A DNA stretch of 64,000 nucleotides from an uncultured Gammaproteobacteria bacterium. GTDB lineage: Bacteria; Patescibacteriota; Microgenomatia; JAMCZE01. Of the stretch, positions 14,293 through 62,710 are shown piece by piece. The position numbers were made by a program, and so were the translations under genes. The stretch's first letter is position 1. Each line of letters starts with the position of its first letter. Location: contig CAZXMM010000001.1 of assembly GCA_964641255.1 (NCBI GenBank), positions 473,984-537,983 of the forward strand. The letters are read 5' to 3'. The notes beneath the pieces are model-generated. The model saw only the letters and a program-made list of their open reading frames with translations. It had not been told where the DNA came from and searched no databases.

Positions 14293-14299
14293 TCTAGAG

Positions 14300-17200: not shown

Positions 17201-17434
17201 ACCGCCTTTTTGTACCAAACCGAGCGGAAGGGCTGGCCGATCATTGAAGGAACGATTCAGGACATGGTGGCAAAAGGGGCCGATTACTATGTTAGTGTTA
17301 ACTATGACGATCCTACCAAGGCCCTTATGCAGGAGGCCCTGGGTAACAATAATGTTCATGAGTATAAAATCTTAGTCACCGAGCCAGAGTATGTGATTAT
17401 CCAGCTAGTTCCCGACCGCTTACTACCAAAATAG
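14300..17434 (+). CDS. Fusion membrane protein: N-terminal O-antigen ligase/polymerase-like (Wzy_C-type) domain plus C-terminal GT-C (PMT_2/ArnT-like) domain
   Basis: The N-terminal half has about 12 TM helices, a large Pro-rich external loop and the O-antigen-ligase signature 'STDNGFLRSLGETGLLGFLAY'. The C-terminal half has 'PFGIFYGRSILPDPTMVTFSLGAQWAMSRYLE..LLVKPFAIFLLLPIAYLWW', typical of PMT_2. The probable start is the ATG at 14300 (MKKILTF), not the upstream GTG at 14231. Ends with a TAG stop. Confidence 0.6.
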   Translation: MKKILTFIDTNILAILAGCLLAFIPLYPKIPLFDILPGYIVRVRAEDFLVGFSILVFLSQILRKRVKLEKNVPTVGLLSYLAIGLLSVIVAVLVVQTVPMELKHVGKTLLHWMRRIEYFSLFFIVFGSIKSLRTAKVLVWIFFIVLLLITLYGYGQKYFAYPYFPAFSTMNREFSKGWVLYLTQNARVLSTFGGHYDLAGYLVIALSLGWSFFFGAKRRLVKVAFGLIILAAFWLLILTASRASFLGYLAAVVAVCFIWMFKRDFMWALSRCLAVICLSILLMLSFGDLSDRFLHLLHLEERVTGLREIVLRPMSAPPPGQTLLENNSIAAVTSKTDMPPTPADKYFDEVKKQSLPADVNKDAPPLMIPTKTASGSTVMVEKTRTYSQNAVLFDLSTGIRFDSTWPRAIEGFKASPLFGSGYATLTKSTKYEFSEAESTDNGFLRSLGETGLLGFLAYFGTLIAMVVVVIKSLGGIKDTFIYSLAAAFVAFTMGLLVNAVMLDIFEASKVAYVYFGMAGLTMGTIYLFKKKITEDYEPLKINFAILPFLKWLWRFVRSDFFLLGIVVVCSFQLRTYRLSEPLADWHSWRQADTSAVTRDFDRNGRIDWLYPTFEDLSSIPSGLPNPRGLRMVEFPIYNAASVTVKKIFKELSVEEAGRVTTNLMWSGSVIFLFLLTRRYLSRRIAYCVAISMAVIPFGIFYGRSILPDPTMVTFSLGAQWAMSRYLEKKKIASLFLSLVFAAVALLVKPFAIFLLLPIAYLWWVANRFNLKKWLVLAVFFGIAAAPMLWWRHWISQFPEGIPASDWLFNGDSIRFKGAFFYWLFADRIGRLILGHWGLILLGFGLIRNYEGKARFYSLVLFLSSLLWLCVFATGNVRHDYYQILLMPSLALLVGGGVELLLFSKIAGLNTYLSKGLGTVAFVFMCAFGWYFVKDFFNVNHPELALAGKAVREVANDRSLVVAPYSGDTAFLYQTERKGWPIIEGTIQDMVAKGADYYVSVNYDDPTKALMQEALGNNNVHEYKILVTEPEYVIIQLVPDRLLPK

Positions 17435-28962: not shown

Positions 28963-29301
28963 ATGCAAAAGCTTATCGCTGAACAAGAAGAGCGAACAAC
29001 AAAAAAATCAAAGCACGTGATGCTTGGTCTTTTCTTTGTGTTGGCAATTTTGTCAGTAGTTAGAGTAGTGCTTGCCAACCGATTGGTAGAAGATTCCGGT
29101 AGGCTTCACACTGTGGATGCTAAGATTGCTGTTTTGGAAAGGACGAATGCTCTTTTGTCTGAGGAAGTACGAGAAAAAAGCGCCATAGTTTATGTAGAAA
29201 GTAAGGCTATAGCTAAAGGGTTCACCCAGGTTAAAACCTACTCCTATATTCACCCCGAACGACCGGTGGCTAGTAATATGGTGATTAGTACGCTGCGATG
29301 A
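28963..29301 (+). CDS. ftsL: Cell division protein FtsL-like (small bitopic coiled-coil protein)
   Basis: 112 aa with one TM helix then a coiled coil. Position between rsmH and ftsI. Confidence 0.45.
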   Translation: MQKLIAEQEERTTKKSKHVMLGLFFVLAILSVVRVVLANRLVEDSGRLHTVDAKIAVLERTNALLSEEVREKSAIVYVESKAIAKGFTQVKTYSYIHPERPVASNMVISTLR

Positions 29302-31085
29302 GCTTCGAAAAAAAAGTCCGTCTCTTAACAGCTGTCCTCCTGCTTTGTTTCGTTGCTGTTTGGTTGCGATTAGCTGTTTGGCAAGTTTTATCAGCCGAAT
29401 CCTTGTCAGCAGCTGCTGAAGCTCAACATTTCAGTGTTCTTAAGATTCCGGCTAGTCGGGGGGAAATTACTTTTGTAGATGGCGAGACGCTAGTAGCTAA
29501 CAAAAGCGCCTCGCTCCTCTATGCCAACCTGAACGTTCTTTCGGGAGATAAATCAGCGATAGCTGAATCTTTAGCGACGGTGCTAGCTTCTGAAGTGCCG
29601 ATGGTGACTACCGGCAGTGCCGAAATCACTGTGGAAGACCGAGAAAATTTCCTTAAGTCTACTAAAGACGAACTCCAAATTCGTATTGCAAAGCGGCTTA
29701 ATATTGAAGGCTCCACTTGGGTGAATCTAGCCCATTTTATTCCTGCCGAGGTAAAAAAGAAAATCGAAGACTTCAAGTACGAAGGACTGGGATTTTTGGA
29801 AGAAGAAACACGAGATTACCCTGAGGCTTCACTCTCTGCCCATTTGATTGGATTTGTGGGCTCCGACCGCCTGGGCAATCCTAAAGGGTACTTCGGGCTG
29901 GAAGGCTACTACGAACGGGAGCTCGCGGGGAAAAACGGGGAACTACGACAAGAAAAGGATGCTTTCGGAAGGCCCATTGCTATTGGATCGGAGACTAGAC
30001 GTGATAAGAAGGACGGGAGCAAGCTCGTAACCACGGTTAATCGCGCCGTTCAGCTTTTTACCGAGAAAGAATTGCTACAAGCCATTACCGACTGGAAAGC
30101 CAGTGGGGGCAGCGCTATCGTGATGGACCCGACTAATGGAGAGATTCTTGCTCTAGCTAATTTCCCTCAATACGATCCAAAGAATTTTTCTTACTTTCCC
30201 ACCACGCTTTATAAAAATCCAGCAATCACCAGTATCTACGAGCCGGGATCCATTATTAAGCCGCTGGTTATGGCGGCCGCGATAAATGAGGGGAAGCTCA
30301 CTCCAGAGAGCCGTTGTCCTGATAAGCTATGCGATGGACCAGTTGGGGTCGGGGGTTATTTTATCCGGACGTTTAACAATCAGTACCACCCCAATCTAAC
30401 TATGACCGAAGTGCTTATCAACTCAGACAACACTGGGATGGTTTATGTTCAGGACCTCCTAGGCTTTCGCAAGTTATATGACTATTATCAGTCATATGGA
30501 TTTAGCGAAAAAACCGGTATCGATTTACAAGAAGAAGAAAGCGGCGTACTACGACCAATAGATAGTTACTATCCAGTAGAACAGGCTAACCTGTCTTTTG
30601 GCCAGGGGATTGCAGTTAACGCCATGCAGATGATGCGAGCTTGGGCTTCCTTGGCTAATAGTGGTTTTTTGATTACTCCCCACCTGGTGAGAACCGTCAG
30701 TGCTAGTGATGAAGATATTAATCTGTCATGGCCTCGGGGTCGGCAGGTTCTAAAGACCTCTACAGCCAAAATTATGACTGAAATGCTGGTCCGGGTAGCG
30801 AACGAAAGCGCTGTCCATTTTCCTAAGGACCGGGTAAAAAGCCTAGCTAATTTTCGGATTGCCGCTAAAAGCGGGACTGCCCAAATTGCTTCCGGGGGAG
30901 GGTATAAGGAGACAGGTACTACTGCTTCGGTTATTGGCTACTTCCCGGCTGATGACCCTCGATTTTTGGTGATGGTAAAGCTAAACGAGCCTGAGGTCCG
31001 TCCTTGGGGATCAGATACGGCCGGGCCACCCTTTTTTGCGATTGCCGATCATTTGCTACACTATTATAATGTCGTGCCAAACTAG
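29298..31085 (+). CDS. ftsI: Penicillin-binding protein (FtsI-type transpeptidase)
   Basis: SXXK 'SIIKP', SXN 'NSDNTG' and KTG 'KSGTAQ' motifs, plus an N-terminal TM anchor. Confidence 0.85.
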   Translation: MSFEKKVRLLTAVLLLCFVAVWLRLAVWQVLSAESLSAAAEAQHFSVLKIPASRGEITFVDGETLVANKSASLLYANLNVLSGDKSAIAESLATVLASEVPMVTTGSAEITVEDRENFLKSTKDELQIRIAKRLNIEGSTWVNLAHFIPAEVKKKIEDFKYEGLGFLEEETRDYPEASLSAHLIGFVGSDRLGNPKGYFGLEGYYERELAGKNGELRQEKDAFGRPIAIGSETRRDKKDGSKLVTTVNRAVQLFTEKELLQAITDWKASGGSAIVMDPTNGEILALANFPQYDPKNFSYFPTTLYKNPAITSIYEPGSIIKPLVMAAAINEGKLTPESRCPDKLCDGPVGVGGYFIRTFNNQYHPNLTMTEVLINSDNTGMVYVQDLLGFRKLYDYYQSYGFSEKTGIDLQEEESGVLRPIDSYYPVEQANLSFGQGIAVNAMQMMRAWASLANSGFLITPHLVRTVSASDEDINLSWPRGRQVLKTSTAKIMTEMLVRVANESAVHFPKDRVKSLANFRIAAKSGTAQIASGGGYKETGTTASVIGYFPADDPRFLVMVKLNEPEVRPWGSDTAGPPFFAIADHLLHYYNVVPN

Positions 31086-33832: not shown

Positions 33833-35190
33833 TTGATTTAAGAAATAAAAGAATAGCGGTTTTAGGATTTGGAATTGATACCTCTGATTTAATTGCCTGG
33901 TTTTTGGAACAGGGAATTAGCTTCACTGTTTGTGACGAAAATGAAAGCGTTGTTATTCCAGACAATTTAAAAAGTAAGTCAGAGCTACGCTTAGGAAAGG
34001 ACGCCTTTGCAAAGTTAACAGATTTTGATGTGATTGTGCGGAATCCTGCAATCTATCGATACCGCAAAGAAATCATTGAAGCTGAAAATAAAGGAGTAGA
34101 GATTACATCAAAAATAAAGATTTTTTTTGATCTGTGCCCGGCAAAGATTATTGGAGTCACAGGGACCAAGGGCAAAGGGACAACCTCAACTCTTGTGTAC
34201 CAAATTCTAAGAGATGCCGGAAAAGAAGTTTTCATCGGTGGAAATATTGGTTTGGGGATTTTTGATTTTCTTCCCACCCTCACAAAGAATTCCTGGGTGG
34301 TTTTAGAAATGTCGAGCTTTCAACTTATTGATCTTCATAAGTCGCCTCATATTGGTGTGCATTTGATGACAACTACTGATCATCTGGATTGGCATGTTAG
34401 TTCAGAGGAGTATGTGCGTGCTAAAGGCAATATCTTTAAATGGCAGAAGCTGGAAGACTTTGCAGTAGTGAATGCTGATTATCCCAATTCTCGTAAAAAT
34501 GGTGAACTTGGAGCCGGGAAAAAGTACTTTTTTAGTCGGAAAGAAAGACAGCAACCCGGAGCCTATCTTAAAGATCAGGCAATTTATCTTGATGATGAAA
34601 AGCTAATTGACATTTCTGAAATTCGCTTGCGGGGAGAGCATAATCAAGAAAACATCATGGCGGCAGCTTTAGCTGCAAGATTAGCGGGGGTGAATTTGCC
34701 GACAATAGTGCAAACAATTAAGAATTTTCGGGGACTTGAACACCGACTGGAAGAAGTGGCAACTGTTGGGGGTGTGACGTATTTCAATGATTCATTCTCA
34801 ACTGTTCCCGAAACAGCCATCGCGGCGGTTAAAGCCTTTAAAGAGCCGATTATTCTTATTGCTGGGGGTAGTGATAAAGGATCAGACTTTACGGAACTGG
34901 GAAAAGTGATTGCTGAAAGCAAAAATGTTAAAGCGGTGATTCTGATTGGCCTAATGACAGAAAAAATCCGCGAGGCAATTCACAAACACACAAACAAACC
35001 AGAATTCCAAATAGTTACAGGACTAAAAACGATGAAAGAAATTGTGAAGACGGCAAAGGCTTTAGCTAAGGCTGGGGATGTGGTTTTATTGTCTCCAGCC
35101 GCGGCCAGTTTTGATATGTTTAAATCATACAAGCACCGAGGGCAAGAATTTAAAGAACAAGTATTAAAATTGGCAGATTATGAAAGATAA
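33811..35190 (+). CDS. murD: UDP-N-acetylmuramoylalanine--D-glutamate ligase
   Basis: 'IIGVTGTKGKGTTSTLVYQIL...FIGGNIG' and the Mur ligase C-terminal domain. Confidence 0.85.
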   Translation: MEASHHMIDLRNKRIAVLGFGIDTSDLIAWFLEQGISFTVCDENESVVIPDNLKSKSELRLGKDAFAKLTDFDVIVRNPAIYRYRKEIIEAENKGVEITSKIKIFFDLCPAKIIGVTGTKGKGTTSTLVYQILRDAGKEVFIGGNIGLGIFDFLPTLTKNSWVVLEMSSFQLIDLHKSPHIGVHLMTTTDHLDWHVSSEEYVRAKGNIFKWQKLEDFAVVNADYPNSRKNGELGAGKKYFFSRKERQQPGAYLKDQAIYLDDEKLIDISEIRLRGEHNQENIMAAALAARLAGVNLPTIVQTIKNFRGLEHRLEEVATVGGVTYFNDSFSTVPETAIAAVKAFKEPIILIAGGSDKGSDFTELGKVIAESKNVKAVILIGLMTEKIREAIHKHTNKPEFQIVTGLKTMKEIVKTAKALAKAGDVVLLSPAAASFDMFKSYKHRGQEFKEQVLKLADYER

Positions 35191-36913
35191 AAAACGCCGC
35201 GTTCATATCATGGGCATTGGCGGTTCGGGGGCCAGTAGTATTGCCCGTTTGGCTCATGGCATGGGTTACGAAGTCTCTGGCTGCGATTTAGAAGAAGGGG
35301 TAAATACTAAAGCATTAAAGGTCGAGGGAATCCCTGTTTCCATAGGGCCCCACGATGTGGCTCATCTCGAAGGAATTGATATTCTTGCCCACACGGTAGC
35401 GGTTGATGATCAAAGTCCGAATGAGCGGGAATATCTGGAAGCGAAAACACGCGGCATTGCGATGACCTGGGAGCAGTTCCTTGCCAACTATCTGCATAAA
35501 GATAAATTTCTGATTGCTGTTGCCGGCACCCATGGTAAAGGAACCACTGCCTCGCTTTTGTCCCGAACACTAGAAAGCGCTGGATTGGATCCGACCTGTG
35601 AAATTGGTGCCAATCTTATTGACTGGGACAAGAAGAATTTCCGGATTGGGAAGAGTAAGTATTTTGTATCAGAAGCTGACGAGTATCGTGCCAAATTCTT
35701 ACACTATTCACCAAGTTTGATTCTTATCACATCAATTGAAATGGATCATCCTGATTTTTTTCCCACACTTGATAGTCTGTATGAAACCTTTTTGAAATTT
35801 GTCGGCAAACTGATTGGTCCCAAAGTTCTTGTTCTAAACAAAAATGATCACGGCTGTCAGGAACTGGTTAAAAGAATGTTAGGTGAATTGAAAAATGAAA
35901 TTAAGATTGTTTGGTACTCTAATTTGCCCGAGAAAGTGAATTTGCAACTTCCTGGTGAACATGTCCGCCAAGATGCCGCTGGGGCCTGGGCTGTTGCCAA
36001 AGAACTCGGTGTACCAGACAAAGAAATTAAGAAAGGATTGGAATCTTTCTCGGGACTGGAAAGAAGGTTTGAAATTCGGGGAGAAAAGGATGGCGTCGTC
36101 ATCATTGATGACTATGCCCATCATCCGACAGCGGTCAAAGTGAATATTGATGCGGTGCGAGAAAAATATCCCAATTCCAGGGTAGTGGCCCTGTTCCAAC
36201 CGCATATGTACTCCCGGTTGCAACTTTTGTTCCAAGAATTTGCCGATGCCCTTAGGGGTGCCGATAGGGTTTTTGTTACCGATGTTTACACCCGCCGCGA
36301 ACAAGGATTGACTCGTCCCACTGGTGAAGAATTGGCAGCAGCCGTTGGAGACAAAGCGAGTTTTGTTAAAGGCTCAACTGAAGAAATAGCGACAGCAATT
36401 AAACCAGAGCTTAACCATGGCGATGTACTTCTCGTTATGGGAGCGGGTGACATTTATAAAGTCTCAACATCATTGATAGCAGCAGACGTTGAAGAAACAA
36501 ACATCGGGGCCAACGCCCTTCTAGTAAATTCTAAAGGTGAGGTAATTTTGCAACAAAGGGACAATAATCCAAATATCTATTTCCCCGGGGGCATAACAAT
36601 GTTTGGAGGAACGATAAAAAAGGGAGACAGCCCCGAAGACGGTTTAAAGCGAGAACTTCTCGAGGAATTAAATTTGCAGGTGGAGCCAGGAAATGTAAAA
36701 AAATTTAATACTTACAAAAAAACCAAAGCAGTAGATGGAATCGATTACAGTGTGAACGTTTTTATCATTGAATCAGTTGAGATTAGCGATCTCACTTTAA
36801 ATGAAGGCGCTGGGTTCGTTGTTGCCCCCCCAATAGATTTATTAAAGAAAGATAAGTTAACAAGGATAACGAGGATAGCTCTTGAAGATTATTTAAAGGC
36901 TAGAGGACAATAA
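35180..36913 (+). CDS. murC: UDP-N-acetylmuramate--L-alanine ligase MurC fused to a C-terminal NUDIX-like hydrolase domain
   Basis: MurC N-terminus 'VHIMGIGGSGASSIARLAHGMGYEVSGCD'. The C-terminal ~130 aa carry a Nudix-box-like 'GGTIKKGDSPEDGLKRELLEELNL' (Gx5Dx7RELxEE). 577 aa versus about 450 for a typical MurC. Confidence 0.8.
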   Translation: MKDKKRRVHIMGIGGSGASSIARLAHGMGYEVSGCDLEEGVNTKALKVEGIPVSIGPHDVAHLEGIDILAHTVAVDDQSPNEREYLEAKTRGIAMTWEQFLANYLHKDKFLIAVAGTHGKGTTASLLSRTLESAGLDPTCEIGANLIDWDKKNFRIGKSKYFVSEADEYRAKFLHYSPSLILITSIEMDHPDFFPTLDSLYETFLKFVGKLIGPKVLVLNKNDHGCQELVKRMLGELKNEIKIVWYSNLPEKVNLQLPGEHVRQDAAGAWAVAKELGVPDKEIKKGLESFSGLERRFEIRGEKDGVVIIDDYAHHPTAVKVNIDAVREKYPNSRVVALFQPHMYSRLQLLFQEFADALRGADRVFVTDVYTRREQGLTRPTGEELAAAVGDKASFVKGSTEEIATAIKPELNHGDVLLVMGAGDIYKVSTSLIAADVEETNIGANALLVNSKGEVILQQRDNNPNIYFPGGITMFGGTIKKGDSPEDGLKRELLEELNLQVEPGNVKKFNTYKKTKAVDGIDYSVNVFIIESVEISDLTLNEGAGFVVAPPIDLLKKDKLTRITRIALEDYLKARGQ

Positions 36914-37979
36914 CTTCTCGTTCTAGCTCAATGTCATAGTTTTTTAAGATATCCTCCCGCATTTGTTCACTAAAGTCAAAAACTTCTTTTCCTGTTGCGC
37001 CCCCCAAATTTACTATAGATAAAGCTTGGTAGGAATGAGTGCTAACTTTACCAATGACTTTTCCTTTCCAACCAAGCTCGTCCAGAAGTCTTCCCGCGGG
37101 AACTTTGACATGATTTGCATGATCGAAGGTGGGGTCGTCGTGCATGGGGTAGGTAAGTTTATCAATCGGATATGATTGTAAATCAGTTACTTTAGTGGAT
37201 AATTCCATGAATTTTTCTTTTGTTACCACCGGATTTTTGAAAAAACTGCCAGCAGTGCCAACCTTATGCCAATCAGGTTGGGTGAATTTACGAATAGAAA
37301 TAATTGTTTCAGCAATATCAAGGGAAGAGTAAGGAGGCTTCTTTCCTGCTTTGTCTAGTTCGCTCTGGAGTGAGAATCGTAATCTGTGTAGCTCGTGATA
37401 ACTAGTGTCACTAAGGGGAACTTTTGAAAGTTTAACTCTCACTGAGCTGACTAAAAACTTTCCTCGGAGTTCTTTTTTAAAAACACTTTCCCTATAGGCA
37501 AACTTGCACTGTTCTTTTGTAAAAGTGGTCTTTTCGAAGGAATCCAAGTAGATTCCTTCGAGAGAATGAAAGATGTCTTCAAAGTTTTGACCGTAAGCAG
37601 CAATATTTTGGACTGGAGCTGCCCCCACGGTTCCCGGGATGTAAGCCATGTTTTCCATGCCGGACCAACCCTCATTGGCAGCCCACATCACAAACTCGTG
37701 CCAGTTTTCTCCCGAGGCCAGTTCGACCACTACCGACTCCTCGTCTTCGCTGATGATTTTCCTTCCTTTTAGTTCATTTTTAAGGATCAAGCCGTCAAAG
37801 TCTTTGGTAAAGAGAATATTGGCTCCTTCTCCCAGTACCAAGATCGGTAAGTTTTTAGGAAGCAGAGCTTTGAGACCTAACAGGTCCTCTTGGTCTTTTG
37901 GGACAACAAACTGACTGGCTAAAGCCGCCACATGGAACGTGTTTAAAGAGAGGAGGTCAACATTTTTTTGCAGCTTCAT
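36900..37979 (-). CDS. murB: UDP-N-acetylenolpyruvoylglucosamine reductase
   Basis: 'LSLNTFHVAALASQFVVPKDQEDL...ILVLGEGANILF' is the FAD-binding MurB N-terminus. It is convergent with murC, overlapping by 14 bp. Confidence 0.85.
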   Translation of the reverse strand: MKLQKNVDLLSLNTFHVAALASQFVVPKDQEDLLGLKALLPKNLPILVLGEGANILFTKDFDGLILKNELKGRKIISEDEESVVVELASGENWHEFVMWAANEGWSGMENMAYIPGTVGAAPVQNIAAYGQNFEDIFHSLEGIYLDSFEKTTFTKEQCKFAYRESVFKKELRGKFLVSSVRVKLSKVPLSDTSYHELHRLRFSLQSELDKAGKKPPYSSLDIAETIISIRKFTQPDWHKVGTAGSFFKNPVVTKEKFMELSTKVTDLQSYPIDKLTYPMHDDPTFDHANHVKVPAGRLLDELGWKGKVIGKVSTHSYQALSIVNLGGATGKEVFDFSEQMREDILKNYDIELEREVIVL

Positions 37980-38028
37980 TGCTCAATTGTATCAAAATGT
38001 GTACAATTCAAGCGGGCGGATCAAGCAT

Positions 38029-39360
38029 ATGGCAAAATTCACTATCACCGGTGGCGCGCCACTAAAAGGCCGAGTGGAGCTCATGGGGGCCAAGAACGCA
38101 GGTTTTAAGGCCATGATTGCCACCCTTCTTGCTGATTCCCCATCAGAAATTCACGGGCTGGGGCTCATTTCAGAAATTGACTTTGCTCGGAGTGTTATTG
38201 CTAGCCTGGGAGGCCAAACCAGCACGCTTGTCGATCCCCACAATCTTCTTATTGACCCAAGGGGTCTAAACACCTTCGAAATTCCTTTGGCAATTGCCGG
38301 CAAATCCCGCTCGACTACCATGTATGTGGGACCTCTGTTACACCGGTTTGGCAAAGCCGTGTTGCCGTCTCCTGGTGGGGACCCCATCGGCAACCGCCCA
38401 GTGGATCGTCATTGGGAAGGGCTAAGGGCCTTGGGAGCAACCGTGTCCTCTCAAAATGGAGCCTATCTGGTGACGGCCCCAAACGGTCTCAAGGGGACTA
38501 CTTTTCGATTCGAAAAAAACACCCATACTGGCACCGAGACATTGATTTTGGCCGCGGCTACCGCCTCAGGCGACACTATCCTTGAAAATGCTGCCGCCGA
38601 GCCGGAAGTGGACGGTTTAATTACGCTTCTAAACGCCATGGGGGCCAGAATTCTCAGGCGCAGTCCCCGCACGATCAAAATCACCGGGGTTAAAAAACTG
38701 TCTGGAGTGCGTCATACCGTTATGAAAGATCGGATTGAAGCGGCAACCTTTGGTTGCATTGCTCTTGCTACCAAGGGTGACGTTACTGTTCTTGATGCCG
38801 ACCCACTAGTTTTAAATGATTTTTTGGTGAAGCTAAATGAAGTGGGGGGTAGATGGGAAAAACTGGATGATGGGATTCGTTTTTGGTGGGACAGGCCCCT
38901 AGTGGCCACCAATCTTGAGACGGCTCCATACCCAGGGTTTATGACTGATTGGCAGCCGCTCTGGACCACTCTCATGACTCAGGCTAGTGGCACCTCAGTT
39001 GTCCACGAAACCATTTTTGAAAGTCGGTTTGCCTACGTAGATGATTTAATGGCAATGGGCGGACAGTTTGATTTTTTTAATCCTCCCGTAACTAACCCCG
39101 ACGAGGTTTATAATTTTGATCTTAAAGACCAAAAAGCCGAGACCAGGCACGCCGTCAGGATCTTTGGTCCAGTAAATTTTAGTCCCAAATCAATTGAAGT
39201 AGCAGATATCAGGCGGGGAGCCACAGTCCTATTGGCCGGTCTGATGGCACAAGGGGAGACAATTCTTAGTGATCCTTTGGATCAAATGAAACGAGGCTAC
39301 GAGGATCTTCCCGGTCGCCTGATTAAACTTGGGGCTCACATTAAAGTTGAAGACTCTTAA
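38029..39360 (+). CDS. murA: UDP-N-acetylglucosamine 1-carboxyvinyltransferase
   Basis: 'FTITGGAPLKGRVELMGAKNAGFKAMIATLLA'. ATG at 38029 is preferred over the upstream GTG at 37939, which would overlap murB. Confidence 0.9.
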   Translation: MAKFTITGGAPLKGRVELMGAKNAGFKAMIATLLADSPSEIHGLGLISEIDFARSVIASLGGQTSTLVDPHNLLIDPRGLNTFEIPLAIAGKSRSTTMYVGPLLHRFGKAVLPSPGGDPIGNRPVDRHWEGLRALGATVSSQNGAYLVTAPNGLKGTTFRFEKNTHTGTETLILAAATASGDTILENAAAEPEVDGLITLLNAMGARILRRSPRTIKITGVKKLSGVRHTVMKDRIEAATFGCIALATKGDVTVLDADPLVLNDFLVKLNEVGGRWEKLDDGIRFWWDRPLVATNLETAPYPGFMTDWQPLWTTLMTQASGTSVVHETIFESRFAYVDDLMAMGGQFDFFNPPVTNPDEVYNFDLKDQKAETRHAVRIFGPVNFSPKSIEVADIRRGATVLLAGLMAQGETILSDPLDQMKRGYEDLPGRLIKLGAHIKVEDS

Positions 39361-54132: not shown

Positions 54133-54705
54133 TTACTCGGTCGCGTAAGTTGCTGAGTCAATTTTGCCAAAACGGTCGACTGGCCAGTAGCGGAAAAACA
54201 CCTTCCCAACAAATTCGGCTGTAGTTACAGGACCAAAATCCCGAGAATCACTCGAGTGGGGACGATTGTCACCCACGACAAAATACTGCCCTTCAGGAAC
54301 AACAATTTCCTGATCCTCGGCCAAATAGCCCTCGGGTCCAGTATAGACTGAGGGGTCAAGATATTCGCTTTCGTCCAGTGGCGCCCCATTTAGGTAAAGC
54401 TTACCCTGAGAGATTTTTACCTGATCCCCGGGCAACCCAATGATACGTTTAATAAAATCAATATCGTTATTCTTGGGAGAGCGAAACACTACCACATCGC
54501 CACGTTTGGGCAGACCCATTCGGTAGCTAATCTTATCAGTAAAAATGTATTCCCCATCTTTAAAAGTGGGATACATTGAGCTACCTTTGACTTGGTTGGG
54601 TTGGAAAAGAACTAAGTAAGCCACTACAAAGATGGCAGCCGCAAAAACAAAGGCCTCAACAAATTCCCACATGACTCCGAAAACACTTTTAAAGGCTCCA
54701 AACAT
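54133..54705 (-). CDS. lepB: Signal peptidase I
   Basis: S26 boxes 'GSSMYPTF', 'RGDVVVF', 'IKRIIGLPGD', 'YFVVGDNRPHSSDSR'. Confidence 0.85.
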   Translation of the reverse strand: MFGAFKSVFGVMWEFVEAFVFAAAIFVVAYLVLFQPNQVKGSSMYPTFKDGEYIFTDKISYRMGLPKRGDVVVFRSPKNNDIDFIKRIIGLPGDQVKISQGKLYLNGAPLDESEYLDPSVYTGPEGYLAEDQEIVVPEGQYFVVGDNRPHSSDSRDFGPVTTAEFVGKVFFRYWPVDRFGKIDSATYATE

Positions 54706-54794: not shown

Positions 54795-54866
54795 GGACTT
54801 GTGGCTCAGTGGTAGAGCGTCCCGTTCACATCGGGAAGGTCGAAGGTTCGATTCCTTCCAGGTCCA
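54795..54866 (+). tRNA. tRNA-Val (anticodon CAC)
   Basis: A manual cloverleaf gives a 7-bp acceptor stem ggacttg/caggtcc (one G-U), D-stem gctc/gagc, and anticodon stem tcccg/cggga with loop uuCACau. The T-arm is gaagg-TTCGATT-ccttc. Discriminator A; no encoded CCA. A TATAAT lies 11 nt upstream. Confidence 0.85.
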
Positions 54867-54883
54867 CTAGCCTATTGGCGGTT

Positions 54884-57652
54884 TTAATTTATTGGGGGCA
54901 ATAAATGCTGAATCCCCCTACTAATCCACTCAGCTTTAAAAAGCTCTCCAGCTTCATAAAGCGTTCTTGATTCTTGCTGCCAGAGCTGGGCGTCATAAAG
55001 ATTAGCGGCTACGGGATTCCAAATTGGAGTAATTTTTTTAGCTGAGTCAATATATCTATCCGCCTTCTCCACCTGATACAGTACGTAAGAAGGGGCCCTT
55101 TGGCCACTATATTTATGGTAAAGATTGTTTAGAATGTCCCAAAAAAAGTAATTTGCAGCTATCAAGTTTTGTCTAACCTGGGAATTCGATTGTTGTCTTA
55201 GCAGCCAAGACAACTCGTTTTGTTGGTAGGTAAGGTCGTAACTTATACTCAGCCATTTTGATCTATTAGTAATGGCATTAACATAAGTGTTGACTTTGTT
55301 AGAAATTATTTTGGCTCTGGCACCAGGTACCCGCGCTATAGCTTCGTTAAATCGGTCAAGCAGAGAGGTGATGGTTTCCTCTGTAAACAGTTGTGAGGGA
55401 TTAGCAACAAAGGCAAACTTTTTGTTTTGCACAGTTCCCGAAGAAATTGTGCCGCCGGTTTCGCGAATAAGCGTTTGCTGGTTGTAAGCAGCAAAGTAAC
55501 TTTCTAATTTATAGCTGCCCGTTCCCGTGCCCTCCAGCTGGATTGTGTAAGTCTGAGGGCTGGGGTTTTTAACAAAAACCGCTTGTTGATTAATATTAAT
55601 TCCAACTTCAACACCACTTCCGTCATAGACTTTAATCTTGGCTGGAGAGTGAATTAAGAACAGTAAGATGGAGTCAGTAGCTGGCCCGCTAATCTCAATC
55701 GGCCCAGAAAGCGAGAATGTAGCTAAAACAGTCGCTAGCCCGTGGTTACTGCTGAAATAATTAGTGTGGGTAACTGGAATTTTTTCATCAGACACGTCAC
55801 TAAGTGATGAACTGGTTGCTAATACTGTGCCATCACCAGTGTTGGTTGTAGCTGACACGAATTTACCGTCAGTCCAAAGCCCCAGCCTTTGCTCAAAGGC
55901 TAGTGGACTGCTTACTTGATAGGTACTGTCGGTGGGTGTATTTAGCCCAGACAGGGTTTTAAGATTTTGTTTCAAATCATCTGAAGGGGCTTGCAAGGCC
56001 ATAAGGGTTGGGTTTTGAGCTTGTGAGCTCATTTGTGAATAGGGCTTACCATCAATGTAGTTAAATATTGGCAAAATATCTTTAACCGAGGGAATATTTG
56101 CCTGAACGATATCTTTGCGAGTGAGATTGGTCCCTCCGGTCGCCCTGATGGCAACCTCCTCAATCACTCTGAGAATTGGATTCGGCTCATCAATGACTCC
56201 CCCCTCCCAAAACTTATAGGCCCCTAAAGCGCCCTTGACTGGTGACCCGCCGGTAATTAGCTTATCAATATGGTCAGCACAACCGGAAATTTTTTCGTAG
56301 CAGTAGATGGCAACAATGCCGCCCAGACTGTGGCCTACAATATTCGCTTTTTTACCAGGACTTTGGCTTTCAACTGTAGATTGAAGATAAGTTTTAAGTT
56401 GCTGAGCAGAGCTGGCTACAGGCTGGCGCCAATCGTAAGCAAAAACAAAAAGATTTTGATTTTCCACCAAACCGGAATTCTTAAGGGTCTTAAGCAGCGG
56501 CTGGTAGTAATCATCGGTGAAGAGGGGCGTAAGTATCCATTCGTCTGGAGTGGTAGCACCCTTTTCTACTAAGCCTTTGTAAGACCAGCTACCACCCAAC
56601 CCTGGTAAAAAAACCACCGGGTTCGCGGTGGGGGGCGGTGGTGGGGTTACATTCACGTCTGCGTAGTATATTCCTAGACCTTCGACACCAACAAAGACCC
56701 TTCCATCTTTGACATCCAGCCCCAAGGTATTTCTTGTTCCCCAAGCTGGATCCTGAATATTTTCCCAAGTCTCCGCCCCATCCCTGCTCATCCAAAGCCC
56801 ACCGCCATAATTTAGCCTACTAGCAAATAGGTTTCCATTTTGGTCCTGAGCTAATCGAAACGCCGGGCTATTGATACCATTACTTTTGATAGTCCAGTTA
56901 CTACCCTCATTGACCGATTTATAAATACCAGCGCTGGGCGGATACTGAGATGCATAAAGGACACTTTCATTATTTTTGTCAATTAGTACATTAGAGTAAA
57001 CTCTGTTTAAAGGTAGTAAGTTCCAGCTTGTGCCGTTGTCGGCACTTTTAAACAAATTAGGATCCGCACCAGCGTATACTCTCAGGGAGTTCTGGTCAAT
57101 TGAAATTTGGCCACTATTTTGGTTTCCGAAGGCTTGAATTTTTGACCAATTAGCACCTCCGTTTGTAGTTTTATAAAGCCCTGACTCAGGACTCCCGTTT
57201 GTATTGCCTATCCCGACGTAGAGTACGCTTTGGGTTTGCGGATGGATTTCAACGGATCTTGGGTAGTCAGAAGTAAAAATTTTGTTCCAGTTTGCTCCCA
57301 TGTTGGGTGACGTATAAATACCACCGCCCCATAAGCTGATTGCAATAGTATTCTCTGGTCCAAGTGAAATCCAGTTAATATCATGGCCGCCTACAAGGTC
57401 ACCCTTAACACTGGTCCAGGATTCACCAAAATCGTCTGTTTTAAGCAGGTCATATGTATCGCTATTGTCTGACTGTATTGCTGCATATAGTGTTAAGCTG
57501 TCATAAACCGATCCTCTTATGAAAGAAGTTGCTCCGTTGAATTCATAAGATGGGATCCATGTAACTGCTAGTATCTGTTTAGGAAAGAAAAAAATAATGA
57601 TAAGGAGAATTGTTAAAAGGTAGCAAATGGTGATTGAAGTAAATTTGATCAA
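54884..57652 (-). CDS. Secreted multidomain protein: N-terminal BNR/Asp-box beta-propeller, Pro linker, LCAT-like alpha/beta-hydrolase (lipase/acyltransferase) domain, and C-terminal domain of unknown function
   Basis: N-terminal signal/TM. At least six S-x-D-x-G-x-(T/N)-W repeats ('TDDFGESWTSV','SPNMGANWNKI','TTNGGANWSKI','SADNGTSWNLL','SVNEGSNWTIK','SRDGAETWENI'). Then 'TPPPPPTANPVVFLPGLGGSW', 'AYDWRQ' and nucleophile elbow 'GHSLGG', the hallmark of LCAT/PGAP1-type lipases. Confidence 0.6.
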   Translation of the reverse strand: MIKFTSITICYLLTILLIIIFFFPKQILAVTWIPSYEFNGATSFIRGSVYDSLTLYAAIQSDNSDTYDLLKTDDFGESWTSVKGDLVGGHDINWISLGPENTIAISLWGGGIYTSPNMGANWNKIFTSDYPRSVEIHPQTQSVLYVGIGNTNGSPESGLYKTTNGGANWSKIQAFGNQNSGQISIDQNSLRVYAGADPNLFKSADNGTSWNLLPLNRVYSNVLIDKNNESVLYASQYPPSAGIYKSVNEGSNWTIKSNGINSPAFRLAQDQNGNLFASRLNYGGGLWMSRDGAETWENIQDPAWGTRNTLGLDVKDGRVFVGVEGLGIYYADVNVTPPPPPTANPVVFLPGLGGSWSYKGLVEKGATTPDEWILTPLFTDDYYQPLLKTLKNSGLVENQNLFVFAYDWRQPVASSAQQLKTYLQSTVESQSPGKKANIVGHSLGGIVAIYCYEKISGCADHIDKLITGGSPVKGALGAYKFWEGGVIDEPNPILRVIEEVAIRATGGTNLTRKDIVQANIPSVKDILPIFNYIDGKPYSQMSSQAQNPTLMALQAPSDDLKQNLKTLSGLNTPTDSTYQVSSPLAFEQRLGLWTDGKFVSATTNTGDGTVLATSSSLSDVSDEKIPVTHTNYFSSNHGLATVLATFSLSGPIEISGPATDSILLFLIHSPAKIKVYDGSGVEVGININQQAVFVKNPSPQTYTIQLEGTGTGSYKLESYFAAYNQQTLIRETGGTISSGTVQNKKFAFVANPSQLFTEETITSLLDRFNEAIARVPGARAKIISNKVNTYVNAITNRSKWLSISYDLTYQQNELSWLLRQQSNSQVRQNLIAANYFFWDILNNLYHKYSGQRAPSYVLYQVEKADRYIDSAKKITPIWNPVAANLYDAQLWQQESRTLYEAGELFKAEWISRGIQHLLPPIN

Positions 57653-58478: not shown

Positions 58479-59351
58479 TTATTTGTAAGCAAATATAATT
58501 ATATCCTGGAATATACCTTGCTCAAACGGTGCTTTTAGTGGGGTCGTTAGAAGGTATGAAAATTTATTGTTCTCGAGAATTCTTAGAAATTTAGACAAAT
58601 CATCAGGTTTTTCTGAATGGTGATGATGATATTCTGTCACTATTTTTTTAATAAGTGGGAGCCGCTTACTTTTCTGTAGTTCTGCAAGAACTACGTCTTC
58701 AGCCCCCTCAATATCTAACTTTAGAAGATCAACCCTTCCTTTTATGAAGGGGGATAGGGTTTTGGCCTCAACAGTTTTAGGCCTGTTGATTGCTTTTCGC
58801 ATGGAATAAACACTTTTATAGAGACTATTTAATCCGGATCCAGGTTCAGTTGGGTTTGAGTAAAATTTTATTCGAGTGTTCTTATCATAAACTGCATAGT
58901 TATAAATCTTGACATCGCGTAAGTTGTTTTCTTCAACGTTTCGCTTAAGTAGTCTAAAGGTAATAGGATCAGCCTCAAAAGTAATTATTTTAGCTGTGGG
59001 GTAAAGCCACTTAAAGTAAAGTGCAGTATCGATGTTTCCGCCGCAATCGAATATAGTTGGACTTTTAGAATCTGGTTCAAAATAGTATTCATTTCGAATA
59101 TATGATTCCTCAAACAAATGAATATAGTGAATCAGACTATAAAAGTTGATGGTATAGTCAAATATTTGAACGCTTTTAAGTTTAAAACCAAGTATAATCT
59201 CGAATAGGATATGCTTTGCACATAGCTCAAAGTAGGTTTTAAGGATTAGCCATTTTTTGGGTTTGATTGGGGCGGGTAGTTGTATCCAGATTGATATGCA
59301 ATTTCTGAAAAAGCTTTTGGTTGATTGGAGTAATATGAATAGACTATTCAT
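58479..59351 (-). CDS. FkbM-family methyltransferase
   Basis: 'FDCGGNIDTALYFKWLYPTAKIITFEADPITFRLLKRNV' fits the FkbM domain. The long N-terminal extension may not be real. Confidence 0.65.
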   Translation of the reverse strand: MNSLFILLQSTKSFFRNCISIWIQLPAPIKPKKWLILKTYFELCAKHILFEIILGFKLKSVQIFDYTINFYSLIHYIHLFEESYIRNEYYFEPDSKSPTIFDCGGNIDTALYFKWLYPTAKIITFEADPITFRLLKRNVEENNLRDVKIYNYAVYDKNTRIKFYSNPTEPGSGLNSLYKSVYSMRKAINRPKTVEAKTLSPFIKGRVDLLKLDIEGAEDVVLAELQKSKRLPLIKKIVTEYHHHHSEKPDDLSKFLRILENNKFSYLLTTPLKAPFEQGIFQDIIIFAYK

Positions 59352-61259: not shown

Positions 61260-61971
61260 TCTCCAAGTAATCATTGTTGATTTTCGTAGCACGAATATCA
61301 TTTCTCCGTTAGTAAAAAAATTAACTCCATATCTTAAAAGCGTGATTGTCATAGACAACAACAAGATAAATCGTGGATTTGCTGGAGGAGCTAATCAGGG
61401 GTTTAAAAAAGCCGCTAAAAGTAAACCTTCTTACTACCTTCTTCTTAATCCCGATCTTAAATTTTCTCCCACAATTATCTCGACGCTTATCAAAAACGGC
61501 AGTGACATAGTCGGTCCAGTTCTTAAATTCAAACGGCATGGAAATTGGGTTTATGACTTTGGTGGTAAGGTTAACTGGTTCTTAGGAAGAACCACTCACA
61601 TTGAGACCCCTACCCTTGATTTAGGCATGGCCAAAAAAAATATCGATTATGTCAGTGGGGCCTGCATGCTGATTAAAAAAGAAGTCATTGATAAGATCGG
61701 ATATTTCGATGAGCGCTTCTTCATGTACTTTGAAGATGTAGATTTTTGTTTGAGAGCCAAAAAAGCCGGTTTTTCGATTGCGGTAGAGTCAAAAGCCGTC
61801 GTTGAACATGAAATCAAGGAACACCGAGATAGTAACGATGCCACAAAAAAACAATATGCTTTTGCCAGCAATCTCATTTTCGCTCGTAAGTGGGTTCCCG
61901 TTTTTTTTCAGCCCCTTGCCACTATTTATCTTCTTTGGCTCGCGATTAGGATATCTGCCCAATCTCGATGA
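61234..61971 (+). CDS. Glycosyltransferase family 2
   Basis: 'GFAGGANQGFKKA...LLNPDLKF...MYFEDVDFCLRAKKAGF' is a GT2 rhamnosyltransferase-like pattern. Confidence 0.7.
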   Translation: MSLKKMKSNLQVIIVDFRSTNIISPLVKKLTPYLKSVIVIDNNKINRGFAGGANQGFKKAAKSKPSYYLLLNPDLKFSPTIISTLIKNGSDIVGPVLKFKRHGNWVYDFGGKVNWFLGRTTHIETPTLDLGMAKKNIDYVSGACMLIKKEVIDKIGYFDERFFMYFEDVDFCLRAKKAGFSIAVESKAVVEHEIKEHRDSNDATKKQYAFASNLIFARKWVPVFFQPLATIYLLWLAIRISAQSR

Positions 61972-62710
61972 AAAAGTGGCAGCCCTATCTTTCGGTAGTA
62001 ATCCCTGCCTTTAACGAAGCGGCAAATTTCAAAGCCGGGGTCCTAGCCCCAGTCTTTACATTTCTTAAAAAGCAAAAATTTACCTGGGAAGTGATTATTG
62101 TTGATGATGGTTCCAGTGATAACACTTTTAAAACACTTCAAGAATTTAGTAAAAGACAGCAAGGTTGCAGAGTTATTCATATTAAACACGGTGGTAAAGC
62201 TTTTGCAGTTCAAGCAGGAATGCTAGCGGCAAAAGGTAATATCCGTCTCTTTACTGACTTTGATCAATCTACCCCCCTAAAACATTGTCTAGACTTTATC
62301 GAGGCTCACAAGCAGGGAAGCGATGTAGTAATTGGGATTCGCCATGCGTCTACTAAAACCCCTACTAAGGAAGACACTCTGTTTCGCAGATTTCGTAGTT
62401 GGGTATTTGTCGTGATTGTCAGAGTGGTACTTGGGGTTAAGGCCAGGGATACCCAGTGTGGTTTCAAGTCCTTCACTGCCGCTTCCGCAAAAAAGCTTTT
62501 CAGTTCGCTTCCTATTACCACTAGAAATAGGGAGGGGGGGCGTATATGGGGGCATTTGATGTGGAGCTACTATACCAAGCAAAAAAGCATGGCTATAAGA
62601 CAACAGAAGTACCCGTAAGCTGGATAAAGATAGAGTCGACTCGTTTAAATGCCTGGAGAGAGCCTATCAAAATGCTTGTAGATGTTTTTCGTATGAAGTT
62701 ATCAAATTAG
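61968..62710 (+). pseudogene. GT2 polyprenol-phosphate sugar synthase (Dpm1/GtrB-like) interrupted by a frameshift at a G7 homopolymer (62534-62540)
   Basis: The N-terminal 'LSVVIPAFNEAANF...WEVIIVDDGSSDNT...FTDFDQSTP' is in one frame. The conserved C-terminus 'AFDVELLYQAKKHGYKTTEVPVSWIKIESTRLNAW' is in another frame after the poly-G. One extra G would restore a continuous roughly 247-aa protein. Confidence 0.6.
62534..62540 (+). repeat. Homopolymeric G7 tract inside the GT2 coding sequence
   Basis: Counted directly: aaatagGGAGGGGGGGcgt, with G at 62534-62540. It lies in an AT-rich (about 33% GC) region. Confidence 0.9.

Follow-up and report, generated by a model that had tools for sequence, protein, structure and literature searches.

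What does a bacterium gain from an exported protein in which a β-propeller is joined to a lipase-like hydrolase, and why should its gene lie beside a tRNA gene and a region of low GC? These questions are raised by an open reading frame within the window (the whole 64-kb stretch of DNA that was analyzed), for which the original prediction was a BNR propeller fused to a hydrolase of the LCAT/PGAP1 type. Translation confirmed that the frame at 54884–57652 encodes a protein of 922 residues, and the fusion was borne out by Pfam, profile, and fold matches. Based on its sequence and its predicted structure (pLDDT 93.5, with a disordered linker), the gene product is an exported four-domain enzyme in which a seven-bladed propeller precedes a lipase-type hydrolase, followed by a β-sandwich and a helical tail. 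The features of the gene are as follows.

54884..57652, minus strand: propeller-hydrolase open reading frame, 922 residues, TTG start
57566..57652, minus strand: predicted Sec signal peptide, residues 1–29 (n-region K3, h-region ~5–23, P24, I-L-A29 then V30)
56648..57565, minus strand: predicted seven-bladed BNR/Asp-box β-propeller head, residues 30–335 (six Asp-boxes, in blades 1–6)
56630..56647, minus strand: TPPPPP linker, residues 336–341 (poly-Pro at 337–341)
55688..56629, minus strand: lipase-type α/β-hydrolase, residues 342–655 (cap insertion at ~477–596, ~120 residues)
56327..56329, minus strand: codon of the putative nucleophile Ser442 (GHSLGG), invariant or nearly so in alignments
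55832..55834, minus strand: codon of the putative catalytic Asp607 (GDGTV), invariant, aligned with the Asp of the Burkholderia cepacia lipase (NDGVV)
55766..55768, minus strand: codon of the putative catalytic His629, invariant, aligned with the His of the B. cepacia lipase (NHLDEI)
55397..55687, minus strand: β-sandwich domain, residues 656–752 (motifs FxxxSPA and GxGxYxL, conserved in the family)
54887..55396, minus strand: seven-helix bundle tail, residues 753–922, fast-evolving

The protein had been described as signal-anchored. Its hydropathy peaks over residues 1–17 of the 922, and in the predicted structure residues 4–22 are helical and pLDDT is low at residues 25–27. In an alignment of 15 sequences the −1 position of the signal is Ala in 13 and Ser or Gly in one each, the −3 position is V, I, A, C, L, or S, and Pro is found at −6 in nine; a hydrophobic N-terminal segment is present in 124 of 139 family members. 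An N-terminal Sec signal is therefore present as described, but because the Pro(−6) and small-x-Ala(−1) site, which is of the signal peptidase I type, is conserved, the signal peptide is probably cleaved, after Ala29, rather than serving as an anchor.

The propeller was originally proposed from repeats of the motif SxDxGxTW. In its strict form this motif is absent from the 922-residue protein, but there are six degenerate Asp-boxes, five of them matching [ST]x[DN]xGxx[WFY] and the sixth looser (residues 72, 115, 162, 203, 246, and 289, a spacing of ~43 residues), compared with averages of 0.15 and 0.74 motifs for the two Asp-box patterns in shuffles of the protein. The head scores above the cut-off of one BNR-type Pfam model, Sortilin-Vps10 (40.9 bits vs. 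33), while the short-repeat BNR model PF02012 had no match in the protein and PSII_BNR fell below its cut-off. The family profile matches the GH74 xyloglucanases with an E-value of 1.6e-25, as does the head by Foldseek (E 2.6e-12), and the Foldseek match to the seven-bladed Ycf48 has a target-normalized TM-score (TMt) of 0.66–0.73. Consistent with these matches, structure prediction, which had been suggested as a check, resolved the head into seven four-stranded blades (pLDDT >90), followed by the expected PPPPP linker at residues 337–341, of which 337–339 are disordered (pLDDT <50). Homologs have P/T-rich or PKD-containing insertions at the position of the linker.

Like the head, GH74 xyloglucanases are seven-bladed Asp-box propellers, but they need two in tandem, with a catalytic Asp pair across the cleft between them. 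Here a single propeller (residues 30–335) is followed by the linker and the hydrolase, so that a two-propeller cleft is impossible, and we rejected the possibility of an active GH74 glycosidase. As the head is too small for such an enzyme, its modeled structure leads us to regard it as most likely a ligand-binding or targeting domain. BNR propellers are known to bind peptides or proteins (e.g., Ycf48, sortilin, and DAIP). By analogy the ligand may be of this kind or a glycan, as BNR propellers bind both classes. The Ycf48/HCF136-type propellers resemble the head in fold, although Ycf48 itself is a lipoprotein that stands alone and has the D1 peptide as its ligand.

In the hydrolase, the motifs VFLPGLGGSW and YDWRQ were found in the translation as had been reported, and GHSLG begins at residue 440. 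The Pfam LCAT model (PF02450) scored 45.9 bits against a cut-off of 21, in a match that spans only profile positions 66–177 of 392, and the PGAP1 model (PF07819) scored 29.5 bits against a cut-off of 24.3 over residues 343–475; the PGAP1 match overlaps that of LCAT, scores lower, and does not separate the two families. Among 57 family representatives, LCAT was matched in 56, and PGAP1 passed its cut-off in the same proportion. The codons for Ser442, Asp607, and His629 were checked against the DNA, and in alignments of 17, 139, 57, and 24 sequences all three residues are invariant or nearly so. The passing of both Pfam thresholds and this putative triad uphold the assignment of GHSLGG as the nucleophile motif of a lipid-acyl hydrolase of the LCAT/PGAP1 type. 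Further motifs characterize the family as a whole (PGxGGSW, YDWR, GHS[LM]GG, GSPxxG...WEGG, DLLPxFxY, LGxWxDGKP, GDxTV, and H).

Comparison of the hydrolase profile with the PDB gave E-values of 8.5e-10 for the B. cepacia lipase, 4.4e-9 for LPLA2, 6.7e-8 for LCAT, and 3.7e-6 for PGAP1, and all significant matches were to a lipase, LPLA2, LCAT, PGAP1, a thioesterase, or a lipase-like depolymerase. The top matches, in sequence and in fold, are each a lipase, phospholipase, acyltransferase, or deacylase, and not a non-lipase hydrolase family. In Foldseek, the first pure hydrolase matches were LPLA2 (4x92; E 2.3e-9, of moderate similarity, with TMt 0.50 and rmsd 8.4 Å over 413 aligned columns) and the lipase BlEst2. 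By sequence the hydrolase therefore appears about equally distant from the Burkholderia family I.2 lipases, LPLA2/LCAT, and PGAP1, and the earlier label of "LCAT-like," while consistent with the Pfam match, is too specific. Lipase or transacylase chemistry is, at this level of evidence, well supported.

Each of these relatives shares part of the protein's organization. With LCAT and LPLA2 (PF02450; 4x92, 4x90, 4x96) the hydrolase has in common PGxxG, YDWR, GHSLG, the Ser-Asp-His triad, and, apparently, a cap that interrupts the fold beyond the strand next after the nucleophile. Those enzymes are extracytoplasmic and act on phospholipid acyl esters, as the propeller-hydrolase may also do, and they have no propeller head, β-sandwich, or helical tail. 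At the sequence level the C-terminal half of the hydrolase, with the Asp and His, aligns not with LCAT but with the family I.2 lipases (1hqd, 1ys1), which gave the best profile match in the PDB (the E-value of 8.5e-10 above), spanning nucleophile, Asp, and His. The family I.2 lipases and Bacillus LipA (1i6w) are also secreted, but they are single-domain proteins that do not have the family motifs WEGG, DLLPxFxY, and LGxWxDGKP; the AHSMGG motif of LipA we take to match the HS[ML]GG elbow of the propeller-hydrolase family. PGAP1/Bst1, the GPI inositol deacylase (PF07819; 8k9r), is lipase-like and strips an acyl chain from a glycolipid, but it is a eukaryotic multi-pass ER membrane protein of which ~50 residues around the nucleophile align.

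C-terminal to the hydrolase, a domain of roughly 370 residues had been left unassigned. Since the region then attributed to the hydrolase ends before Asp607 and His629, the remainder is really ~270 residues (656–922), and it is predicted to form two domains. The first is a sandwich of eight strands (pLDDT >90) through which most family matches run, covering core query positions 3–375, and whose matches in the PDB were all weak and generically Ig-like (E 0.03 or worse). The second is the helical tail, with pLDDT ~95 for helices 761–917, for which Foldseek found no PDB match below E 0.03. Mean identity to orthologs is 18% for the tail vs. 44% for the hydrolase, and in three family members (P0051, P0061, and P0243) the tail is replaced by a P/T linker and a C-terminal TM helix. 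An apolipoprotein-like tail was considered but dropped, as none of the lipid-binding helical bundles matched it in fold. BlEst2 (6wpx) and EstA3 of T. tengcongensis also combine a lipase domain with an adjoining C-terminal β-sandwich; the match to BlEst2 (Foldseek E 2.3e-9 over ~540 columns, ~12% identity) has an rmsd of ~17 Å, indicating that the domains are arranged differently, and neither protein has a propeller head or helical bundle. The sandwich of BlEst2/EstA3-type enzymes has been tied to long-chain substrate use or autoinhibition (PMC10816834).

At E ≤ 1e-30 the protein falls into a family that numbers at least 416 representative clusters, and every named member of this family is from Microgenomates, Roizmanbacteria, Shapirobacteria, or Patescibacteria; judging from these homologs, the source organism would be a CPR bacterium. 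Positional orthologs bear differing heads (BNR, Kelch, GH130/GH43/GH32-like, or lectin-like), and some members are headless. Among the 57 representatives, the GH-like heads were GH130 (18), GH32N (7), and GH43 (5). The combination of a constant catalytic core and an exchanged head fits a single chemistry aimed at different surface ligands. In literature on CPR, Patescibacteria, or Microgenomates in connection with LCAT, PGAP1, or lipase we found no description of this family.

The neighborhood of the gene offers further evidence as to its role, and comprises the following features.

54133..54705, minus strand: signal peptidase I (Peptidase_S26; Pfam E 3.8e-52)
54795..54867, plus strand: tRNA-Val(CAC), identified by ARAGORN and Rfam, convergent with the gene and 16 nt from its stop codon
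57713..62618, plus strand: surface-glycan cluster identified by Pfam, separated by 60 bp from the divergently oriented gene

The tRNA gene and the low GC of the adjoining region (0.373 at 57.7–62.6 kb) had been pointed out earlier, and both are real, but they do not mark an acquired island. No repeat of the 3′ end of tRNA-Val was found in the window and no integrase among the neighbors of the gene, whose own GC (0.434) equals the mean of the window (0.433). In addition, related CPR genomes share the order IleRS-FtsW-L21-L27-ParB-signal peptidase I-tRNA-Val-gene-glycosyltransferase cluster. The arrangement recurs in loci L002–L004 and L008–L011, signal peptidase I is at the equivalent position in these loci and in L001, and tRNA-Val also separates it from the gene in L002, L003, and L004. 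On these grounds we rejected a tRNA-associated genomic island; the tRNA-Val gene is part of a conserved synteny and not an integration site. A profile search of genome contigs with a seven-sequence alignment yielded three true relatives, with CPR-like gene content. Within the window there is no paralog of the gene, and promoter and terminator predictions at the locus were no better than those for shuffled sequences.

Taking these data together, we think it probable that the gene product is a Sec-exported, four-domain extracytoplasmic serine acyl-hydrolase (a lipase, phospholipase A, or transacylase) that acquires or remodels acyl lipids at the cell surface. The protein would be exported and its signal peptide removed after Ala29, and the propeller, tethered by the flexible poly-proline linker, would bind a ligand or target. 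By homology, the hydrolase, with its triad of Ser442, Asp607, and His629 and its cap, would release a fatty acyl chain held in ester linkage by a lipid or glycolipid, with water or an acceptor hydroxyl as the recipient. More speculatively, the sandwich and bundle may assist in binding of the acyl chain or substrate or in retention at the cell surface. One example of such a role would be the release of lysolipids and fatty acids from partner-derived lipids, by which a bacterium thought unable to make its own lipids could acquire them; a lack of lipid synthesis in this organism lies beyond what a 64-kb window, from a total of ~950 kb, can show. The physiological role, be it harvesting of a partner's lipids or modification of the cell's own envelope, we can only infer.

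It was suggested originally that the propeller delivers the enzyme to the membrane of a partner cell. We consider a role in the cell's own envelope equally plausible, because adjacency to the cell's own glycan-synthesis cluster is conserved, and this constant adjacency points at least as much to the envelope as to partner lipids. In a specific form of this alternative, the enzyme would work with the adjacent Wzx/Wzy-type cluster and acylate, deacylate, or lipid-anchor the cell's own surface glycopolymer or glycolipid, with the variable head recognizing the lineage-specific glycan made next door. Two routes can be envisaged, namely transacylation in the manner of LCAT, with a phospholipid as donor and a sugar hydroxyl as acceptor, and PGAP1-style deacylation of a glycolipid. 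In the window the cluster encodes a GT2, an FkbM methyltransferase (on the minus strand), a GT1/GT4, a methyltransferase, and two further GT2 proteins, and in eight of the nine loci examined the family gene is divergent, across 33–135 bp, from such a methyltransferase/GT2/GT4 cluster, to which PMT_2, Wzy_C, and a flippase are added in some cases. This arrangement holds whatever the head (BNR, GH130-like, Kelch, or none), nearly all head types are carbohydrate-related folds, and the cut-off for PGAP1, a glycolipid deacylase, was passed in 56/57 members. LCAT, LPLA2, and PDAT are, moreover, transacylases. Conversely, the opposite flank (signal peptidase I-ParB-L27-L21-FtsW-IleRS) is equally conserved and functionally unrelated, so the synteny may reflect just the general collinearity of these small genomes, and the most distant member checked (L013) is not adjacent to a glycan cluster. 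Known glycan O-acyltransferases have SGNH/AT3 or MBOAT folds, not lipase folds. Overall we see this specific form as possible, at perhaps one chance in four.

Fatty-acid and phospholipid synthesis are generally missing in CPR bacteria (Patescibacteria), and the origin of their membranes is an open question. CPR bacteria, whose lipid synthesis is incomplete, appear to have membranes rich in lysolipids, products that can arise through phospholipase A (PMC7242380), and in Vampirococcus the acquisition of lipids has been suggested to involve a secreted phospholipase (PMC8080830). It is tempting, if rather doubtful, to view the whole family as the extracellular lipid-harvesting machinery of Microgenomates, in which a surface-displayed phospholipase A or transacylase would dock by its exchangeable head on a glycan of a partner cell or the environment, and the stripped acyl chains or lysolipids would be built into the cell's own membrane or surface glycolipids. 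If true, this would explain the lysolipid-rich membranes of organisms without lipid synthesis, and the swapping of heads beside a hypervariable glycan cluster would be a determinant of host range or surface specificity.

An accessory enzyme of the CAZyme kind, whose esterase would free hemicellulose of acetyl or feruloyl esters and whose GH74/GH130/GH43/GH32-like heads would bind or cleave the glycan, feeding a fermentative CPR cell, seems to us improbable. Heads in the family do resemble hemicellulose- and fructan-active GH families, including the GH74-like head here, and fusions of a GH to an esterase are common among CAZymes. However, the hydrolase profile matches lipid-acyl enzymes and not carbohydrate esterases (Pfam Esterase PF00756 had an E-value of 0.007, under its cut-off), the lone propeller is unable to form the GH74 cleft, and the large cap and β-sandwich are as in long-chain lipases. 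The gene is, in addition, a core syntenic one beside biosynthetic glycosyltransferases, not part of a polysaccharide-utilization locus. A prolyl-oligopeptidase-like (S9) peptidase, whose N-terminal propeller would gate a C-terminal α/β-hydrolase, is very hard to credit and was rejected on Pfam, predicted structure, and Foldseek superpositions, since although the domain order is alike and acylaminoacyl peptidases and prolyl oligopeptidases were matched at E ~1e-10, the high rmsd (17–20 Å) and low query-normalized TM-score (~0.23) mean that each domain was matched on its own rather than the pair as one assembly, the 922-residue protein has no Peptidase_S9 Pfam match, the linker is a disordered poly-Pro stretch, other members have a jelly-roll/lectin head or no head, and the sequence profile matches lipases.

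Returning to the surface acyl-hydrolase that we favor, the family offers a tangible candidate, open to cloning, for the step of lipid acquisition or envelope lipidation that is missing in CPR, because it is a conserved, exported, lipase-type positional ortholog with interchangeable heads beside a surface-glycan locus. Were it an ordinary secreted esterase, its value would be limited to the correction of "PGAP1 family protein" and "hypothetical protein" annotations. The family is also a clear case of domains being swapped in situ around a catalytic core that stays constant, and its sandwich and helical-bundle module is confidently modeled with no solved structural relative. A protein identical to the 922-residue product is already present in NCBI, and members of the family are labeled "PGAP1 family protein" in public databases.

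The open reading frame at 54884-57652 (minus strand) has a TTG start codon and encodes a protein of 922 residues, an identical copy of which is present in NCBI on a contig of 950,062 bp. Modelling of this protein by AlphaFold2 from an alignment of 70 sequences was very confident (mean pLDDT 93.5, pTM 0.74) and predicted the following layout:

Residues 4-22, helix of a signal peptide
Residues 33-332, seven-bladed propeller, blades 1-6 each with an Asp-box between strands 3 and 4
Disordered linker (pLDDT <50 at residues 337-339)
Residues 346-650, alpha/beta hydrolase, interrupted at ~477-596 by a helical and hairpin cap
Residues 661-748, eight-stranded beta-sandwich
Residues 761-917, seven-helix bundle (the tail)

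The translation contains the features on which the original prediction of a propeller fused to an LCAT-like lipase drew, namely a hydrophobic N-terminus (residues 1-28), a PPPPP linker (337-341), GHSLG at residue 440, VFLPGLGGSW and YDWRQ, and it scored above the curated Pfam cut-offs for LCAT (45.9 bits, cut-off 21), PGAP1 (29.5 bits, cut-off 24.3) and, as BNR-type domain, Sortilin-Vps10 (40.9 bits, cut-off 33). Residues H441, S442, G444, G445, D607 (in GDGTV) and H629 were invariant in an alignment of 17 orthologues of the same architecture, and invariant or nearly so across 139 representatives of the family with this type of hydrolase core. As D607 and H629 are conserved and the hydrolase was modelled over 346-650, it reaches approximately residue 655, and consequently the unassigned C-terminus, initially put at ~370 residues, is really ~270. 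Mean identity to the orthologues was 44% in the hydrolase, 37% in the propeller, 32% in the sandwich and 18% in the tail. We consider it well supported that the protein is exported and is a serine acyl-hydrolase (lipase, phospholipase A or transacylase type) acting via Ser442/Asp607/His629, with a seven-bladed propeller on a flexible tether as its putative ligand-binding head.

When a hydrolase profile (24 sequences, residues 342-655) was searched against the PDB, the best match was to the Burkholderia family I.2 lipases (E 8.5e-10), in an alignment spanning the nucleophile, the catalytic Asp (GDxTV versus NDGVV) and the catalytic His. LPLA2 (E 4.4e-9), Bacillus LipA-type lipases (E ~1e-8), LCAT (E 6.7e-8) and PGAP1 (E 3.7e-6) were also matched, with palmitoyl thioesterase and the lipase-like PHB depolymerase PhaZ7 ranked lower, and the first pure-hydrolase matches by Foldseek were LPLA2 (E 2.3e-9, target-normalised TM-score 0.50) and the lipase BlEst2. 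Every informative match is to an enzyme acting on fatty-acyl esters or thioesters, and thus the central domain is placed with the lipase-type enzymes and not in a non-lipase hydrolase family. The label "LCAT-like" is nevertheless too narrow; the hydrolase represents a family of its own, at about the same distance from LCAT/LPLA2, from PGAP1 and from the family I lipases.

Residues 655-922 were modelled separately (pLDDT 94.4), and a Foldseek search of this model against the PDB returned nothing better than E 0.03, the sandwich being generically Ig-like and the helical bundle having no PDB counterpart. The lipases BlEst2 (6WPX) and EstA3 also have a C-terminal beta-sandwich, which affects long-chain substrate use or autoinhibition (PMC10816834). 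In a few family members a P/T-rich linker and C-terminal transmembrane helix replace the helical tail, a weak hint that attachment to the cell surface is through the tail end. The sandwich and tail may aid substrate handling or surface retention. At the other terminus, a basic n-region precedes a long h-region with a Pro at -6, and in the 15 aligned orthologues position -1 is A (13), S (one) or G (one) and position -3 is V, I, A, C, L or S. The Pro at -6 and small residue at -1 fit a cleaved Sec signal, which we infer in preference to the signal anchor originally proposed. A hydrophobic N-terminal segment is present in 124 of 139 family members, most of the exceptions resembling truncated gene calls, and a Cys451/Cys458 pair conserved within the BNR subfamily agrees with an extracytoplasmic protein.

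The propeller has six degenerate Asp-boxes (residues 72, 115, 162, 203, 246 and 289) at a spacing of ~43 residues, five of which fit [ST]x[DN]xGxx[WFY] and the sixth a looser pattern; shuffled versions of the protein gave on average 0.15 and 0.74 matches to the stricter and looser pattern, respectively. The claimed repeats are therefore present above shuffled expectation, but none of the six fits the strict SxDxGxTW in which they had been written. The top Foldseek match of the protein was GH74 (E 2.6e-12), the family profile of the head matched GH74 xyloglucanases (E 1.6e-25) and sortilin (E ~1e-8), and the head matched the seven-bladed Ycf48 with a target-normalised TM-score of ~0.7. GH74 catalysis requires two propellers, whereas the modelled head is a single one, leading us to consider it most likely a binding module; ligands of BNR propellers are glycans, peptides or proteins.

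A full HMMER pass with the core (residues 342-922) over 1.84 billion representatives matched 3128 proteins at E<=1e-3, 1368 at <=1e-10 and 416 at <=1e-30, most of them 750-1000 residues long with the hydrolase beginning 220-400 residues in, and the match typically spanned hydrolase and sandwich. All source-named members are from the "Microgenomates group", Candidatus Roizmanbacteria, Candidatus Shapirobacteria or "Patescibacteria group", and their database annotation is generic ("PGAP1 family protein", "alpha/beta fold hydrolase", "hypothetical protein"). Together with the 950-kb contig and the gene content, these homologues suggest that the window itself comes from a CPR/Microgenomates bacterium. 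LCAT and PGAP1 were matched in 56 of 57 family representatives, the heads of which include GH130-like (18), 3-keto-disaccharide-hydrolase (lectin-like, 10), GH32N (7), Sortilin/BNR (6), Kelch (6) and GH43 (5) domains; the BNR head is a minority variant, and headless members exist (e.g., P0154, 608 residues). No published description of the family was found in the literature searched. The chemistry is of an already known kind; what appear to be undescribed are the combination of four domains, a C-terminal module lacking any solved relative, and the head-swapping positional orthologues beside a glycan locus.

A tRNA-Val(CAC) gene lies on the opposite strand 16 nt past the stop codon, and the neighboring region at 57.7-62.6 kb has a GC content of 0.373, compared with 0.434 in the gene and 0.433 across the window. 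Both parts of the supposed tRNA and low-GC island setting are present, but as there is no tRNA-derived repeat in the 64-kb window, no integrase near the gene, and the GC of gene and window agree, we reject an acquired island; this is a conserved core neighborhood in which the low GC is that of the surface-glycan cluster. The order IleRS-FtsW-L21-methylase-L27-ParB-SPase I-tRNA-Val-hydrolase gene-GT2-GT1-methyltransferase-GT2 is shared with three related MAG contigs and one JGI contig, among which ParB is 78-88% and the propeller-hydrolase 36-46% identical. Distant family members (~30% identity) hold the same slot with other heads: GH130-like in locus L009, unassigned in L010, Kelch in L011 and none in L012. 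In these four loci the gene is divergent, across a spacer of 33-135 bp, from a glycan-biosynthesis cluster (methyltransferase, GT2, GT4, with or without PMT_2, Wzy_C and a Wzx-type flippase), and the opposite flank is usually SPase I, ParB, L27, L21 and FtsW; of the members checked, L013 alone, the most distant, lacks this setting. Heads have been swapped in place on a positional orthologue.

The substrate would be a fatty acyl chain in ester linkage on a lipid or glycolipid, and the protein may act in acquiring or remodelling lipids at the cell surface. We favor this role, which fits the reports that CPR lack lipid synthesis and are enriched in lysolipids (PMC7242380), and the proposal that Vampirococcus acquires lipids by means of a secreted phospholipase (PMC8080830). 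The chief alternative is a role in the cell's own envelope, coupled to the adjacent glycan cluster, by transacylation onto, or deacylation of, a glycoconjugate of the cell itself. It is supported by the conserved divergent adjacency, but the opposite, unrelated flank is just as conserved, which weakens that evidence. We regard a carbohydrate esterase in the manner of a CAZyme as less likely and a POP-like peptidase as unlikely. The protein would be of high interest only if a lipid-harvesting or glycolipid-transacylase role were demonstrated.

Several additional observations were made in these loci. Within the glycosyltransferase cluster, an FkbM-type methyltransferase (Methyltransf_21; 58479-59351, minus strand, thus opposite to the cluster) has the region's lowest GC (0.344) and is unmatched at the syntenic loci of MAG contigs CAYPLU010000003.1 (L002), CAYHYP010000002.1 (L003) and CAZNUP010000001.1 (L004); it is probably a lineage-specific insertion. 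The last GT2 frame of the cluster (61968-62618, plus strand; overlapped by 62289-62603, minus strand) is short (216 residues) and looks atypical past approximately residue 165, where the Pfam match stops, and a frameshift or truncation is possible. Two tandem diverged signal peptidase I copies occur in L002 (8914-10087) and L004 (11455-12678), ~51-53% and 74-78% identical to the one copy in the window. Contigs L002-L004, one of them 709,729 bp, are filed as "uncultured Gammaproteobacteria bacterium". Their gene order and proteins match the CPR window, and the filed name looks like a placeholder or a taxonomic error. In L012, a resolvase, an EcoRI-methylase-like gene, a GmrSD_N/HNH protein and a Hypoth_Ymh protein (9711-12183) replace the SPase I-ParB flank, which looks like a small mobile or defense insertion adjoining the headless gene. 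Elsewhere in the window are the following:

1686-3140, DUF2079 membrane protein
10003-11400, second PMT_2 protein
14231-17434 (plus strand), 1067-residue protein with Wzy_C (O-antigen ligase/polymerase-like, residues 251-482) fused to PMT_2 (ArnT/PMT-type GT-C, residues 670-813)
29298-31085, PBP transpeptidase
35180-36913 (plus strand), Mur ligase (Mur_ligase, Mur_ligase_M, Mur_ligase_C) with a C-terminal NUDIX domain (residues 442-524)
37939-39360, MurA-like EPSP_synthase-fold protein

The first three of these indicate a second surface-glycan locus within the window, and the PBP transpeptidase and MurA-like protein form a dcw-like cluster around the NUDIX-bearing Mur ligase.
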